DNA of 64,000 nucleotides, from contig JBHLMN010000008.1 in the NCBI GenBank assembly GCA_048938105.1, forward strand, positions 1 to 64,000, written 5' to 3'. This document shows positions 8,695 through 15,150 of this stretch, piece after piece. Each line of letters begins with the position of its first letter. Position 1 is the first letter of the stretch. Origin of the DNA: Promethearchaeota archaeon (GTDB lineage Archaea > Asgardarchaeota > Heimdallarchaeia > Hodarchaeales > Hodarchaeaceae). The position numbers and the translations under genes are program-made. The notes beneath the pieces were generated by a model. The model saw only the letters and a program-made list of their open reading frames with translations. It made no database searches and was not told where the DNA came from.

Positions 8695-11600
8695 TCACCT
8701 CTTAAAGAAATCTAGGCCTCCTTTTCTTCTAATTAAGAAAGCTGCAATTCCAATAGCACTGACTAATGTCAATGCTCCAGCAGCAATTAATATAACTGCA
8801 CCTAGATCCACCTCAGGTTTCTCTGCGGGTGTTACAGAGAATATTATTGTATTCATCAAGGATTTATTTTCAAAGACTATGTCTGGTGTTGCAGGGTAGG
8901 AATAGTTGAATGCTAAACCAACAACTTGCAGTTCATACTTTCCTTCTTCAAAGGTTAGAGCTTTGTGTGTCCATCGTGAAAAACCTTTGTAGGTCATTGT
9001 ATAATTATCAGACCAGCCAATAGATTCTGTTTCATTTGATTCAGTAGCATTTTTAATTTCTTGGTAACGGAACTGAACATTTTCTAAAGCTGTTAAATTA
9101 AACATTTCAATGTTAATGGGTCCAGCATTGTAAGTTCCCCTGTGCTCTGGTGATTTAAACTGGAGCGGAGAGGTCAATCGATTAACTTCAGCTAAAAATT
9201 CCTCGGGGGAAGTGAATACTAGGGGATCTGTCCCAATCCATAGCTCTAATGAATCACTATAGCCATCATAATCAGTATCGGCATTATAAGGTTGAGTACC
9301 ATATATTAACACCTCTTCTCCGTCCATTAATCCATCGAAATCAGAATCTGGATTACGGTAATCTAGAAAACCTCCATCCATCTTATAGGAGTTATAGATA
9401 AAATATTCGGCCCCATCACTCAAGAGATCATGGTCAAAATCACGCTCATATCCGTCAGGAATGCCATTATTATTTACATCAGGGTTATATGGATCGTAAA
9501 GCGGATCACCATCTATTGCATCGACCTCTAAGCCATCAGGCCATCCATCATCGTCACTATCTGGGTCAAAGGCACTAGTCGCGTACTGGGGATTATATGT
9601 ACTGATTCTAGCTCCCCAACCAGAAGTTGTTTCTTTGCCTAATGCGGTTGTCTCGTTACAATCTAATATCCCATCACCATCCGTATCTCGTTTTGTTGGA
9701 TCTGTTTTATGATATTGAATTTCATCATAATCTGAAATAGTGTCATTATCACTATCAGGAAGATCTGGTCTGAGATGGTTATCAATTTCATACTTATCCC
9801 CAAGTTTATCTCCATCCGTATCAGCTTTAACTGGGGACGATCGGAACGGAAGGACTACAACATAGCCAATAAATGGATGGATAAGAATTTCAATTGGATC
9901 AATGACTAATTCCCGGCCATCATTTATGCCGTCATTGTCTGTGTCGTTATTAATTGGATTCAAGAGAATATTTTCCTGAGAAATCGCAGAAAAATCTCCA
10001 TATCGTAGGTATAGTTCCCAAGAATCCATTAACGAATCATTATCACTATCCATTGAACAAGGATTGGTTCCATAGGTAAAGATCTCATCATAATCAGACA
10101 ATGAAAAAGTTGGGTTGCCTTGAGCATCTGGAAATAGTAGACTATCCCCATCAGAATCTTTGCTATTTGGGTTTGTTCGATAAATAAAAACTTCTTCTCC
10201 GTCTCGTAATCCATCTTGATCCGAGTCATAGTCCATTGGATCTGTGTCATAAGCTAATAATTCATCGCGATCCGTTATATCGTCGTTGTCAGAATCTTCA
10301 TCGACTGGATCAGTTCCATAAACATATATCTCTTCATAGTCCGTAATGCCGTCTATATCCGAATCAGAGCTATGGGGGTTGGAGTGACTGAAGAATAATT
10401 CCCAATAATCGTCTACACCGTCATAATCTGTATCGGGATATAATGGATCAGTGAAATAGCGGAACCATTCGTCTCCATCTAATATTAAGTCATCATCAGT
10501 ATCTGACTTACTAGGATTTGTCCCTAAGAATATTTCAATTCCATCTGGCAAGGAATCTCCATCTGTATCTGGATTAGCGTAATATGTTGTGAACTCGCGC
10601 TCCGGTTGAAGTGTTCCTTCTTTTCCATCTATTAAACCGTCATCATCAGTATCAGAATCTAGAGGATCACTTGCGGGATTCAAGCTTAGCTCATATCCAT
10701 CGGAGTTAAGAAAACGGCCTAGAACACGGGTACGAGATGTTGCAGCTGAATCACCGTCACTATCAGGATTACAAGGATTAGTTTGGAAAACTTTGGACAC
10801 TAATTCCCTAAAACCATCTGGATCAATTTCAACAACGGTTGCTGCAATACCTTGAACCTCAATACCGTCTCGCATATCGCGTAAGTACGTTCTTGTTACG
10901 CTTGTGCCAGCAATAGAACCATCCCAATATTGCGTAAAGGAATCATCATCCGTGTCATTGTCTAATGGGTGTGTATAACCACTTCCAAACACTAACATAG
11001 GTCTATCGGAACCATCAGGATAATTCTCACGATCACCATAATATGGGCCAAATTCTCCCTCTTGTCCATCCAGAAGAAGGTCGTTATCAGTGTCGGGATT
11101 TAAGGGATCTGTGCGGTCATTATAGATAGTATTACCTATTTGTATTTCAGTTACAGAAGGAGTTATTCCAGTCAAATTCCAGGCGTGGGTGATTTCATAA
11201 AAATCAGTGAGACCATCATTATCAGTATCCCGAGAGAATGGGTCTGTCCCATATTCTATTACTTCTTCGAAATCAGTCATACCATCAATATCTGTATCAG
11301 GGTGCCTTGGGTTCGTCTTCAATACCCATTCAACCATGTCAGATAGGCCATCTGCGTCTGTATCTGGCATATTTGGCTCGGTATTTGATACTTTCAATTC
11401 AAATTTATCAGAAAGACCATCTCCATCAGTATCACTATTATTGGGGTCACAAGAAGGTATTGTATTTTCTAGGTCATCTGATAGTCCATCATTATCTGTA
11501 TCAAGTCCTAATGCATTATCCTCAAGATCTTGAGATCCCCGTGAGGGAGACAAATCTAATGGAAAACCTGGTGGATTCCAGCTGAAACCCATGTCCCAAC

Positions 11601-14600
11601 CAAAGAATAAGAACTCCATAACTACATTTACCCATAATGTTATATTTAGAGTAATTACAAAGGGAGCTGAAACTCCAGGAGTTAGATCTTGGAAAAAGGT
11701 TAACTCAATGTCAATTCCAAATTCTACTCCTATTGCAACAATATATAGGTCTAGTTTGATCCCGACAGAGGCTCCTATGCCTAATATTAAGGTTAAAGCG
11801 CCTTGGGCAGGCTCTCCATTGTGAGCAGCCTTTTGTCCTATCTCGAATGCTATTGATAACCAGAGAGTCACTCCTAGCTTATCTAATCCAATATACTTAG
11901 CGACTTTATTTAACGGGCCACCTGCTGCTCCACCTGTTATAATATCAAAAAGGGTAAACTCCCTTGAAACCTTAATATAAATAGCCAATTTCCATTCTAA
12001 TAGTTTCATTGCTTCTTCAGCTGGGAAACCCCCTGCTTCGAATTTAAAGAGCTGAATAGAGAAGAATACCTCCCCAGAAACTTCTAATTCGAGACCAAGA
12101 GAAGAAAGGATGGCATCAAATAACCCACCTTTTCCAGTGGATGCCATTGTTGCTTCTAAACGCGCTGAAAATACAGGTGCAAATATAACGAATTCTATGA
12201 TCTTCTTGAAAAAAGCTCCGACATCTAACTCAAAATCGGTGAGTCCTTTGTAAATTATCTCCTCAATATATTCAACAAACTCATCATTCTTCCATTCAAC
12301 GCCAAGGCTAATTGAGAGTTCGAACTCGAGTTCTATACCGATGTAATCCGCTCCCGCGAATGGTATTTTTCCTCCAACAGTTAGAACAGCCATTTCTTCA
12401 ATTTTCTTAGCAAGTTTTTCTGTCATCTCACCCAGGAGTTCTGCAATATACTGGGATAGAGCAGCCTTAAATTCATTGATGATAAAATCAACGCCATCAG
12501 TAAATAAGCCTTTTATCTTGAATAGTATTCCTACTCCTGTTTCAGCAAGTTTAAGGGTTGATTGCGAGATTCCTGGGAAATTCTTTTCCAAAGAATCAAC
12601 AACTAAATATTTCAGATCCTCTTGTGTTTCTGTTTCATTGTAGACACTGTATCCTCCTAAAATATTTGGACCAACAAGAGCAGTGAATATATTCTGAATA
12701 ATACGCATCGCTACTGTTCCATCAACCCCTAAGTATGAATCAAAGAAAATCGTTCCAGCTTGCATGGCAAGAACCCGAAACATATTCAAAAGACTGTTTC
12801 CTTCTCCAGAAATTAAGGTTTGAGCGACAGTTAATAATAATTCTGCAAGAACATTGACTGCTGATTCAATGTTTGGACTATCAACAAAGAACTCAAGAAG
12901 GGTCACAATTGCTTTCTTTATCTTGTCAGCAAACTTAGCTTGCTTATCTGAATCTTGATTTTCGCCTGAAAGTCCACTGACATCATCTGTCAGAAGCATC
13001 TGAGCTGCTGTGCCGTCAGTAGTGATGGCAATGAATCCGAAAACCGAGTCGAGAATTGAAGAGATAATCTCTTGTTTATTCTCAGCAAGTGTGTCATTTT
13101 CTGTGGAAAAATCAATGAAATCTTTCATGACGGCCTTAAAATCACTTGCAACAGAGGTTGGAAGTGATGGAACCCAAATCCTGCCAAGGATCACAAACGC
13201 ATCTATTAACGCTTGGGATTCATCAGTTGTAGTATCTAGACCTATTCCTCTAAATTGAGTTTCAATTTCACTTCTAATTACGGCTTGGTCAGTCTCTGAA
13301 GAGATGGCAGCATCATTGAAAACCTTCTCTATATCAAAAGCTAATTCAGCTATCTCATTCTCACTAGTGGATTCCCCAAGAAATGTCATCGCGCTAGCAA
13401 TGAAGTCTTTAATTGTAATTATTGTCTTTTTTGACGTATAAAACGATAAAGTACCACATGAATCATTAAAATTATCGAATAATGTCAATCCTAAGCTATA
13501 AAATCGTCCAATCGCATCAAGAGCACTTTTCTCTTTTGCAGTCAACGTGGTATTATCATTGAATTTCATAAGAATATATTCGACGACATTCGGAATTCCT
13601 TGTAACAGTGCCTCAAGGTCTCCAAAAATAAAACCTTTAGCTAACGGTGTTAAAAATGACACGAGGTTTGTTGCTGTTTTTTTAGATTTATTTGTGAATC
13701 CTCCATATACTTCCTTAACCCAACTCCATGTAGACATATTCAAGACTTTTTCCGTGGCAAAGCTAACTATTTCGCTAATTGGTTCATCTACAAGTTCTAG
13801 TGTGGTTTTGTTGATTAATCTATCAGCTATTTCAACGCCATTCATTAGTGTGGCTTCAAGGATTTGTAATATTGATTGAATAGTCGTTGAGTTAACTGCA
13901 GTACTCGCAACAGAAAAGATGGCTGTTATGGTAGATTTTGCTAAATCTAATATATCATCAACATCTCCACGTAGTAAATATAAAGCATCTACCACAACAG
14001 GAATGAATGGTTTCATAATTTCGGGGATAGGTGCTATGGCCATAATAGATTCAAGTAATCCTTTAATTGTCTTTTTGACATCACCACCCCCCTCAGATGA
14101 GTCAGCTAGAAGCATTCCTAACTGTTTGATTGTATTAACTATATCTGTAGCCACTTCGGGATCTATACCAAGTTTATTTCCTCCTAGTTTGATTAATACA
14201 TTCAAGACAGTGTCAATGATATCAGCAGAGGCCCCTTCTAATCCACTAAACAACGGAATATCCGTAATCGTAAAATCATCTTGAACAGATTCAGTTTCCT
14301 TGGTATTATAGATTCGTAAGCTAGTTTGAGGTATGGGAGTTGTAGTGTCATTAAAACATCTTGTGGAATTATCAGGTAGTATTTGATATGCATCAGTCAT
14401 TTTAGCAAGTTTAGCATTCCAGTTCCGAAGGCGAGCTTCGTCATCATATTCACCGAGAGGATCTGGTATGTTTTCTGGGTCTATAACTCCATTTATCAAT
14501 CGGTTCATATTTCTACCAAAATATTCTATACCAAGGATTCTAAAGTCCTCAGCACATCTTTCATAGGCTATTCCATTTTCTTTTTTGTCAAGGATTTCTC

Positions 14601-15150
14601 CCACTTCCCAGAGATTAAAGAAGTAGGACTGTTCTGCACCGATAACTTGACTTCCTTCGATTCGGACATTCGTCTGTTCAACAGGAACTTCGTTACGTAA
14701 AAGATTAGTTGCCCCCGAACCGAATATATGGTAAGAAAATTGATTTTTAGATAGTGTGTCAGCAATTTTTTTCCAACTAACTATTTCTTCCCCAATGTTT
14801 ACTCCTTGAAGACTTCCATTAATAAAATATAATTTAATCCAATATTCTCTATCCATGATATTGTACTGTAAATGCTTCCAGTTTGTAACAGCGATAATGT
14901 AGGTATTAAGATAGACTAGGCTGACAGAAGTGAATGTATTAAACGCAGTAGAAGTTAAGAGGTCACAATTAGGGTCATAATATATTGCTATCTTTTTAGG
15001 AAGATCCCAACCCGAATATCCCTTCTCTGAAGGATCTATTCGATATAAATTATTGTTTAATGCAGTAACTTTTACAATATTAACTCCTAGAATTGCTAAG
15101 AATAGCATTGCAAAGCAGAAAGATCTTAATGACTTATAAGTGGGTTTCAC
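8695..15150 (-). CDS. Giant membrane-anchored surface protein: alpha/beta N-domain, long helical region, amphipathic beta-strand region, about 770 aa of Ca-binding DxDxDG (TSP3-like) repeats, Ig-like domain, TM
   Basis: 2151-aa ORF; GTG start overlaps the upstream stop (GTGA) with aggagg SD; dozens of P..DTDxDGLxDxxE repeats; TM followed by RRK. Confidence 0.9.
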   Translation of the reverse strand: MKPTYKSLRSFCFAMLFLAILGVNIVKVTALNNNLYRIDPSEKGYSGWDLPKKIAIYYDPNCDLLTSTAFNTFTSVSLVYLNTYIIAVTNWKHLQYNIMDREYWIKLYFINGSLQGVNIGEEIVSWKKIADTLSKNQFSYHIFGSGATNLLRNEVPVEQTNVRIEGSQVIGAEQSYFFNLWEVGEILDKKENGIAYERCAEDFRILGIEYFGRNMNRLINGVIDPENIPDPLGEYDDEARLRNWNAKLAKMTDAYQILPDNSTRCFNDTTTPIPQTSLRIYNTKETESVQDDFTITDIPLFSGLEGASADIIDTVLNVLIKLGGNKLGIDPEVATDIVNTIKQLGMLLADSSEGGGDVKKTIKGLLESIMAIAPIPEIMKPFIPVVVDALYLLRGDVDDILDLAKSTITAIFSVASTAVNSTTIQSILQILEATLMNGVEIADRLINKTTLELVDEPISEIVSFATEKVLNMSTWSWVKEVYGGFTNKSKKTATNLVSFLTPLAKGFIFGDLEALLQGIPNVVEYILMKFNDNTTLTAKEKSALDAIGRFYSLGLTLFDNFNDSCGTLSFYTSKKTIITIKDFIASAMTFLGESTSENEIAELAFDIEKVFNDAAISSETDQAVIRSEIETQFRGIGLDTTTDESQALIDAFVILGRIWVPSLPTSVASDFKAVMKDFIDFSTENDTLAENKQEIISSILDSVFGFIAITTDGTAAQMLLTDDVSGLSGENQDSDKQAKFADKIKKAIVTLLEFFVDSPNIESAVNVLAELLLTVAQTLISGEGNSLLNMFRVLAMQAGTIFFDSYLGVDGTVAMRIIQNIFTALVGPNILGGYSVYNETETQEDLKYLVVDSLEKNFPGISQSTLKLAETGVGILFKIKGLFTDGVDFIINEFKAALSQYIAELLGEMTEKLAKKIEEMAVLTVGGKIPFAGADYIGIELEFELSISLGVEWKNDEFVEYIEEIIYKGLTDFELDVGAFFKKIIEFVIFAPVFSARLEATMASTGKGGLFDAILSSLGLELEVSGEVFFSIQLFKFEAGGFPAEEAMKLLEWKLAIYIKVSREFTLFDIITGGAAGGPLNKVAKYIGLDKLGVTLWLSIAFEIGQKAAHNGEPAQGALTLILGIGASVGIKLDLYIVAIGVEFGIDIELTFFQDLTPGVSAPFVITLNITLWVNVVMEFLFFGWDMGFSWNPPGFPLDLSPSRGSQDLEDNALGLDTDNDGLSDDLENTIPSCDPNNSDTDGDGLSDKFELKVSNTEPNMPDTDADGLSDMVEWVLKTNPRHPDTDIDGMTDFEEVIEYGTDPFSRDTDNDGLTDFYEITHAWNLTGITPSVTEIQIGNTIYNDRTDPLNPDTDNDLLLDGQEGEFGPYYGDRENYPDGSDRPMLVFGSGYTHPLDNDTDDDSFTQYWDGSIAGTSVTRTYLRDMRDGIEVQGIAATVVEIDPDGFRELVSKVFQTNPCNPDSDGDSAATSRTRVLGRFLNSDGYELSLNPASDPLDSDTDDDGLIDGKEGTLQPEREFTTYYANPDTDGDSLPDGIEIFLGTNPSKSDTDDDLILDGDEWFRYFTDPLYPDTDYDGVDDYWELFFSHSNPHSSDSDIDGITDYEEIYVYGTDPVDEDSDNDDITDRDELLAYDTDPMDYDSDQDGLRDGEEVFIYRTNPNSKDSDGDSLLFPDAQGNPTFSLSDYDEIFTYGTNPCSMDSDNDSLMDSWELYLRYGDFSAISQENILLNPINNDTDNDGINDGRELVIDPIEILIHPFIGYVVVLPFRSSPVKADTDGDKLGDKYEIDNHLRPDLPDSDNDTISDYDEIQYHKTDPTKRDTDGDGILDCNETTALGKETTSGWGARISTYNPQYATSAFDPDSDDDGWPDGLEVDAIDGDPLYDPYNPDVNNNGIPDGYERDFDHDLLSDGAEYFIYNSYKMDGGFLDYRNPDSDFDGLMDGEEVLIYGTQPYNADTDYDGYSDSLELWIGTDPLVFTSPEEFLAEVNRLTSPLQFKSPEHRGTYNAGPINIEMFNLTALENVQFRYQEIKNATESNETESIGWSDNYTMTYKGFSRWTHKALTFEEGKYELQVVGLAFNYSYPATPDIVFENKSLMNTIIFSVTPAEKPEVDLGAVILIAAGALTLVSAIGIAAFLIRRKGGLDFFKR

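Follow-up and report, generated by a model that had tools for sequence, protein, structure and literature searches.

A helix array and an amphipathic beta wall as the predicted head of an Asgard surface protein, with a possible lipid-binding or membrane-docking groove

We analysed a 64,000-nt stretch of a Promethearchaeota genome (Hodarchaeaceae; assembly GCA_048938105.1, contig JBHLMN010000008.1, positions 1 to 64,000 of the forward strand), hereafter called the window, with emphasis on positions 11570-14270 on its minus strand. This region corresponds to aa 294-1193 of a 2151-aa open reading frame (ORF) and would constitute the membrane-distal head of one chain in a conserved surface complex of two proteins that is specific to Asgard archaea. 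The head appears to be built of two parts, an expandable array of amphipathic helices and a conserved beta-wall module. Our preferred reading, which we hold tentatively and with less than even confidence, is that it forms a hydrophobic groove, plugged by helices, which binds lipids or other hydrophobic ligands or docks on membranes in a carrier-like manner, on one chain of a two-chain Asgard surface complex.

Predicted fold and hydrophobic pattern of the head

The head had been described as unassigned in an initial annotation of the window, and sequence searches leave it so. Matches of the 2151-aa protein to Pfam and NCBIfam are confined to TSP3 repeats beyond aa 1214, and with Pfam at E ≤10 neither the helical nor the beta part gave a match. 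Searching PDB sequences with the head (phmmer) returned only a designed nanopore (E 0.65), while a profile built from one of our alignments (A2, see below) returned only bile-acid symporters (E 2.3), a match that reflects composition. No internal repeats were detected in the head by self-BLAST.

Two AlphaFold2 (AF2) runs were carried out, one on aa 1-1200 with an alignment of 57 sequences (A1; predicted local distance difference test score (pLDDT) 78.3, predicted template modelling score (pTM) 0.51) and one on aa 861-1200 with an independent alignment of 36 sequences taken from genome loci (A2; pLDDT 76.7, pTM 0.58). Both runs agree on 25 helices at aa 307-918 followed by 10 strands at aa 921-1191, each 8-19 residues long, and so reproduce the order of helices and strands that the initial annotation had proposed. 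Short helices are inserted after strands 2, 3 and 5 of the beta wall in the AF2 models, and the edge strands are short, with 9 and 8 residues. The long helix directly preceding the sheet (aa 863-918) is hydrophobic at 23 of its 56 positions at the family level, with a hydrophobic moment that is maximal at 95-105 degrees, and the inserted helices of the beta module are likewise amphipathic or hydrophobic in the family-level analysis.

Strands with one hydrophobic face and hydrophobic hairpin tips had also been noted initially. All six strings quoted in support are present in the protein, four of them at aa 937-953, 1020-1035, 1119-1135 and 1140-1152 and the two tip strings, LYIV and FLFF, at the positions given in Table 1. 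The one-sided pattern holds at the family level, where the 69 positions of the hydrophobic strand face have a mean Kyte-Doolittle (KD) value of +2.56 with 6% charged residues, compared with -1.08, 31% charged residues and 44% G/A/S/T for the 69 positions of the opposite face. Across 36 family members the grand average of hydropathy (GRAVY) of the beta part ranges from +0.36 to +0.89 (median +0.62). The head is far more hydrophobic than the other surface giants of the window, which have values from -0.6 to +0.3; these carry beta-rich Pfam domains, a loose check on the remark that helical ectodomains are rare among the surface proteins here.

When strictly alternating runs were scored in the 2094 ORFs of the genome with at least 300 aa, a paralogue of the gene ranked first (66 residues per 270 aa) and the window gene second (61), against a genome median of 0 and a 99th percentile of 20. 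The alternating-strand pattern is far from what chance would give, and the gene is an extreme outlier of its genome. Ranks three and four are occupied by C6:205434-210068 (-), an ORF of 1544 aa with 48 residues per 270 aa, and C53:26573-31621 (+), 1682 aa with 38; these two ORFs are not hydrophobic overall and show no BLAST similarity to the 2151-aa protein.

The hydrophobic face is also the better conserved one, with an entropy of 1.49 and a top-residue frequency of 0.60 (n=75), versus 2.24 and 0.43 (n=73) for the other face. The best-conserved elements of the whole head are the glycine-rich connection between strands 5 and 6 (entropy 1.33; G1088 and L1089 both at 97%), the FLF tip and the aliphatic tip between strands 7 and 8. 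Conservation of the FLFF tip, one of the hydrophobic tips singled out in the initial annotation, is particularly clear, with F1180 at 91%, L1181 at 100% of 36 sequences and F1182 at 86%. Judged by strand topology, the conserved tips and the strand 5-6 connection would share one end of the wall, opposite the exit of the stalk.

Using the beta module alone, Foldseek placed pre-cleavage EspP first (E 3.7e-4, TM score 0.30) and microsomal triglyceride transfer protein (MTP) at rank 11, while an unbiased structure search against 48,161 chains yielded a top 50 made up exclusively of membrane beta-barrel walls. By root mean square deviation the module fits best to barrels of 14-16 or more strands and poorly to 12-stranded ones; together with the short edge strands, this better fit to wide barrels suggests an open, weakly curved wall. 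Using the whole head against PDB, the five first ranks in Foldseek were all large lipid transfer proteins (LLTPs), namely MTP (6i7s_H, E 6.4e-4), lipovitellin (1lsh, 8.4e-4), MTP, honeybee vitellogenin (1.9e-3) and again MTP (2.4e-3), aligned over ~700-790 columns with a probability of 0.72-0.94 and TM scores of only 0.06-0.11; membrane barrels ranked below these. No helical matches appeared in the top 50 of the second set of whole-head structure searches (VIA), which does not imply that the fold of the array is new. The N-domain preceding the head matched SAVED-CHAT, PurE, lobes of sugar-binding proteins and legumain.

Distribution of the family and pairing with an FG-GAP protein

A HMMER search over 1.84 billion representatives gave 83 proteins at E ≤1e-3, 44 of them at ≤1e-30, mostly 2000-2300 aa in length and with the head at the N-terminal end. 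Ten clusters were looked up, and the five that carry organism names are all Asgard (Hodarchaeales twice, Heimdallarchaeota, 'Asgardarchaeia' and one labelled Odinarchaeota); the named relatives are without exception annotated as 'hypothetical protein'. Of 399 genomes of the phylum, 84 contain the beta module, spread over 37 of 85 genera; in the high-quality subset it is present in 23 of 89. The ORFs that carry it are nearly always 2050-2260 aa long, and distant family members share 32-34% identity across ~2100 aa. The 2151-aa form with GTG start is itself present in an NCBI-sourced protein collection. A literature search, with most subscription journals outside its scope, found no description of the family. 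In one family member, the metagenomic protein P0011 (2800 aa), the helix-plus-beta module is preceded by an NlpC/P60 peptidase domain (aa 706-784, E 3.7e-7), and the stalk contains PKD domains.

The genome itself contains one paralogue with 27% identity on contig C14. A third paralogue type of 1582-1654 aa, found at L041:4371-9116 (+) and L042:3759-8720 (+), has kept the N-domain and the TSP3 region along with the first conserved helix motif, the long helix and the beta module, and has ~130 aa in place of ~650 aa in the 2151-aa protein. The helical array thus varies from ~130 to ~620 aa between types, while the N-domain and the beta module are common to all three. As the short paralogues do without ~500 aa of helices, these helices represent a lineage-specific expansion, and part of the helical stretch may be a spacer-like elaboration. 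The initial annotation had named an ordinary beta-sandwich or a helical spacer, with a fully buried hydrophobic core, as the outcomes that would speak against its proposal; by its fold matches to membrane beta-barrel walls the beta part looks like neither, and the spacer description possibly suits the ~500 aa of expanded helices.

The second chain of the proposed complex is encoded by the adjoining giant gene with an N-terminal FG-GAP propeller (Table 1). Homologues of this partner adjoin family members in all five other genomes inspected by ORF map. Its FG-GAP N-terminus was detected in 80 of the 399 genomes, and 72 genomes hold both genes. Adjacency was counted for 98 of 113 family loci (E ≤1e-20, 15 weaker loci omitted), using all but the two weakest partner rows. 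Of the 98 loci, 72 have an adjacent partner on the same strand, immediately downstream in 67 (median offset 4216 nt) and upstream, as in the window, in 5; the other 26 have no partner on the same contig and strand up to a distance of 16 kb. The paralogue pair of the same genome (C14:62607-70458) follows the common order with the family gene first, and the pair in the window is reversed. In five genomes of one genus both genes are joined in single ORFs of 4271-4901 aa, and a metagenomic protein of 4348 aa has the same fused layout; fusion of the family gene with the FG-GAP gene argues for a physical partnership. The short paralogues at L041 and L042 are each followed by an own, shorter FG-GAP partner of 1941-1983 aa.

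Regarding the layout of the 2151-aa protein, the N-terminal signal, the C-terminal transmembrane (TM) helix with its basic tail and the calcium-binding repeats point to an extracellular location, and we infer a single-pass protein with its N-terminus outside and the head farthest from the membrane. A disordered linker separates the N-domain from the helical array. The features are listed in Table 1.

Table 1. Coordinates of the 2151-aa protein, its parts and its partner gene in the window
Feature	Window position	Strand	Remarks
Whole gene, 2151 aa	8695..15150	-	GTG start overlaps the stop codon of the giant gene upstream
N-terminal signal peptide or signal anchor, aa 1-33	15052..15150	-	KD peak at aa 13-31 and basic n-region; probable cleavage
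N-domain, aa 45-250	14401..15018	-	Rossmann-like alpha/beta/alpha; AF2 pLDDT >90; outside the region 11570-14270
Amphipathic helical array, aa 307-918	12397..14232	-	25 helices; GRAVY ~+0.29
Long helix, aa 863-918	12397..12564	-	56 residues; amphipathic end to end; precedes the sheet
Amphipathic beta wall, aa 921-1191	11578..12390	-	10 antiparallel strands, short inserted helices; GRAVY +0.57
Strand 5-6 connection, aa 1066-1091	11878..11955	-	TLxD..TGGxGGGxLN..YIGLD; top conservation in the head
LYIV hairpin tip, strands 7/8, aa 1135-1138	11737..11748	-	Family consensus aliphatic plus small residues
FLFF hairpin tip, strands 9/10, aa 1180-1183	11602..11613	-	String located; conserved
TSP3-type calcium-binding repeats, aa 1196-1980	9211..11565	-	~785 aa; presumed stalk; Pfam PF18884 E 2.5e-23, from aa 1214
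Membrane-proximal region, aa 1981-2110	8821..9210	-	~130 residues; unassigned
C-terminal TM helix, aa 2118-2136, then short basic tail	8743..8799	-	KD over 19 residues 2.44
Partner gene, 3208 aa	15147..24773	-	FG-GAP propeller, C-type lectin and lamin-tail domain (Pfam)

The directly upstream neighbour of the gene pair is a divergent PAS gene, and next to it follows a protein with AAA_26 and DRTGG domains and a weak match to the CbiA/MinD family (E 1.8e-7). This AAA_26 and DRTGG protein (27598-28638, minus strand) adjoins an ADP-forming acetyl-CoA synthetase and an acetyl-CoA hydrolase/GNAT fusion, and the neighbourhood resembles a metabolic cluster more than a mobile-element cassette.

Possible uses of the hydrophobic face

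If the head works as a helix-plugged groove, the beta wall would be a tall, gently curved and probably open sheet of ten strands whose hydrophobic face clasps the 56-residue helix and the short amphipathic helices. In the resting state the helices would cover the greasy face, and once a lipid surface or a hydrophobic ligand is encountered, the groove, together with the FLF and aliphatic tips, could take up lipid tails or dock onto the membrane, in a mode resembling that of LolA-, TULIP- or LLTP-type lipid binders and not that of a pore. The TSP3 calcium repeats would hold the head off the single membrane of the cell, and the FG-GAP partner chain would supply ligand recognition.

The higher conservation of the hydrophobic face and the amphipathic character of the long helix over its whole length fit a face that is covered at rest; most simply, the greasy face would grip the long and the inserted helices. 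By a rough estimate the face of the sheet would measure ~2400 square angstroms, of which ~1500 (~60%) could be covered by helices within the module; the remaining area could accommodate the helical array, the partner chain or a ligand. What the analysis establishes is the architecture of the head, its amphipathicity and conservation, its fold class, the restriction to Asgard archaea and the pairing of the genes; the openness of the sheet, the identity of the covered face and any binding of lipids or membranes are inferred.

Several observations weigh against such a groove. A better conserved hydrophobic face is equally expected of a plain buried core, and AF2 folds the beta module confidently in the absence of a ligand. 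The array shrinks to ~130 aa in one paralogue type and is therefore not an obligate wall of a cavity. A search for expression of the gene turned up only metagenomic runs, from sediment and mangrove. The LLTP matches are weak, with low TM scores and without sequence support, and in a second whole-head structure search LLTPs were not among the top 50 by Z, i.e. they stayed below 8.8. The initial proposal of a lipid groove or membrane sheet is thus upheld in part: the fold matches to LLTPs and barrel walls and the conserved tip speak for it, the weakness of the LLTP matches and the conservation of the hydrophobic face against it.

An alternative that we consider almost as probable as the groove is a structural or docking scaffold. 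Here the beta wall and helices would be a large but ordinary two-layer domain with a fully buried core that positions the N-domain, docks the FG-GAP partner or does both, and its hydrophobicity would serve big interfaces within or between the chains instead of lipids. The greater conservation of the hydrophobic over the polar face and the confident model without ligand suit this explanation, as does the possibility that the long helix and the inserted helices cover much of the face; the tight pairing of the genes, including the fused ORFs in five genomes, and the retention of N-domain and beta module in all three paralogue types are equally in line with it. What such a scaffold explains poorly is the composition of the module: soluble two-layer domains very rarely have a GRAVY value of +0.57 or one as high as the family median. 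The helices would cover only about 60% of the face by our estimate, the hairpin tips are conserved and wholly hydrophobic, and instead of soluble scaffolds the top fold matches comprise lipid carriers and walls embedded in membranes.

In a bolder version of the groove reading, contact with another cell, such as a syntrophic bacterium or another archaeon, would open the helix plug, and the wall would extract or exchange lipids or hydrophobic molecules or dock into the foreign membrane, as part of a pan-phylum, integrin-like two-chain machine. We regard this version as unlikely.

Quite unlikely, in our view, is a membrane-inserting device, i.e. a beta pore, tether or fusogen, in which the helices would peel off and the wall, singly or in oligomers, would push its hydrophobic face into the membrane of another cell on contact. 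A pore or fusion-like sheet had been among the initial suggestions; pore-forming toxin and fusion-protein folds were absent from the top-50 lists of the whole-head and beta-module searches, TcdA1 reached only E 0.034 with a probability of 0.11 against the whole head in Foldseek, and the viral library BFVD gave 0 matches at E ≤1e-3. The hydrophobic stripes of 14-19 residues exceed what a bilayer needs. In typical lipid-facing surfaces the hydrophobic face is less conserved than the polar face, contrary to what is seen here. Moreover, a search with PF01103 for Omp85/BAM gave 0 matches in this 99%-complete genome, with a positive control in 7 of 14 reference genomes, and the module is tethered at both ends inside a chain of 2151 aa.

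That the head is a very divergent true homologue of animal LLTPs (vitellogenin, MTP, apoB) is a remote prospect. It would account for the five top ranks of the whole head in Foldseek and for the matching order of a helical array and then amphipathic sheets, but neither Vitellogenin_N (PF01347) nor Vit_open_b-sht (PF09172) matches at these loci; genome-wide, PF09172 gave nothing better than E 0.5 and PF01347 only partial matches of 80 aa at three other loci. The N-domain is Rossmann-like and not the N-terminal beta-barrel of LLTPs, the TM scores do not exceed 0.11, LLTPs fall outside the top 50 by Z, and the helical array is dispensable in the short paralogues. A 501-aa ORF reaches the Vitellogenin_N cut-off (24 bits) at C51:2250-2477 (+), over only 80 profile positions (466-545), which is probably a helical-repeat artefact and has no connection with the head.

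Finally, a cargo role in an 'aloposon'-type mobile element of Heimdallarchaeum, described in PMC8813620 as tandem genes for 3000-6000-aa proteins, was rejected and has next to no probability left: tandem giant genes do occur here in a Heimdall-group genome, but the 64-kb window contains 0 tRNA genes, the neighbours are metabolic, the protein has only 2151 aa, and the fixed arrangement of the gene pair, found in 37 of the phylum's 85 genera, speaks for vertical inheritance.

According to PMC9834061, cultured Asgard cells have no S-layer, 'complex surface proteins' protrude from their single membrane, and it is through such poorly understood surface proteins that Asgard archaea contact their syntrophic partners. 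With its length and architecture conserved in 37 of 85 genera, its FG-GAP pairing and its label of 'hypothetical protein', the present family offers a concrete and testable candidate for such structures. Its head unites features known otherwise from bacterial outer-membrane barrels and from animal lipid carriers, although the organism possesses neither of the two. Should the preferred groove bind lipids or membranes, lipid exchange or intimate bacterial contact by the archaeal host of eukaryogenesis would become directly testable; should the plug open on cell contact, this would be a new route for lipid traffic between species or for membrane tethering in the lineage that founded the eukaryotes. 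Even if no lipid is bound, the family would still add a new extracellular domain and a conserved surface complex of two chains.

Comparison with known systems

The Otus/Ephialtes aloposon pairs of Ca. Heimdallarchaeum, compared here by their description in PMC8813620, likewise consist of tandem giant genes in a Heimdall-group Asgard archaeon, but the window has no tRNA gene to serve as an integration site downstream of the giants, its upstream genes suit metabolism better than a cassette of four genes with a MinD/ParA-like ATPase directly upstream, the proteins are smaller and the pair is spread phylum-wide. With the myxobacterial adhesins CglD, MtsC and MtsD the 2151-aa protein shares TSP3 calcium-binding repeats (PF18884), which lie outside the head; its matches to the full-length family models are partial, and the scores of 144 bits for CglD (cut-off 400), 25 for MtsD (cut-off 800) and 19 for MtsC (cut-off 350) stay far below the cut-offs.

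A broader likeness exists to integrins, as two co-encoded single-pass chains are found, one with an N-terminal FG-GAP propeller and the other with a Rossmann-like N-domain, and both have calcium-repeat stalks. A vWA/beta-I domain with a metal ion-dependent adhesion site was looked for in the N-domain, and there was no VWA or Integrin_beta Pfam match; the N-domain is Rossmann-like, with CHAT, PurE, binding-protein lobes and legumain as the structure matches listed. Integrins, in turn, lack a helix array combined with a beta wall.

In START/Bet v 1, TULIP/BPI and LolA proteins an antiparallel sheet curves around an amphipathic helix and leaves a hydrophobic space between the two, and the beta module recalls this arrangement. 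The Asgard module is about twice as large, extracellular and tethered, and none of the three folds occurs in the top-50 lists of the beta-module searches; LBP reached only E 0.077 with a probability of 0.06 in Foldseek. A survey of Asgard START proteins describes 14 classes of cytosolic shuttles, and its abstract and section 5 do not mention the present family (PMC12139934).

Two further structural likenesses are those to LLTPs and to outer-membrane proteins. The LLTPs compared, MTP (6i7s), lipovitellin (1lsh) and honeybee vitellogenin (9ens), have a long array of amphipathic helices and then large amphipathic sheets, as in the head; the differences are the weakness of the match (E ~1e-3, TM score ≤0.11), the Rossmann-like N-domain, the missing Pfam match and an array of ~130-620 aa depending on paralogue type. 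The outer-membrane beta-barrel walls, represented by CymA (4d5b), the beta-domains of EspP, Hbp and BrkA, PgaA and PopA, resemble the beta wall as long-stranded antiparallel meanders with alternating hydrophobic and polar faces. In contrast to these, the wall belongs to a single-membraned archaeon without Omp85 and sits extracellularly in the interior of a 2151-aa chain; it has ten strands, is probably unclosed, has the better conservation on its hydrophobic face and shows no sequence similarity. The module ends at aa 1191, with ~960 residues including the TM helix beyond it, so that it does not form a C-terminal barrel with a beta-signal. Membership in either family thus fails on the defining features tested, and it is the likeness in possible mode, a sheet with a greasy face that may receive lipid or membrane, that we take from these comparisons as a lead.

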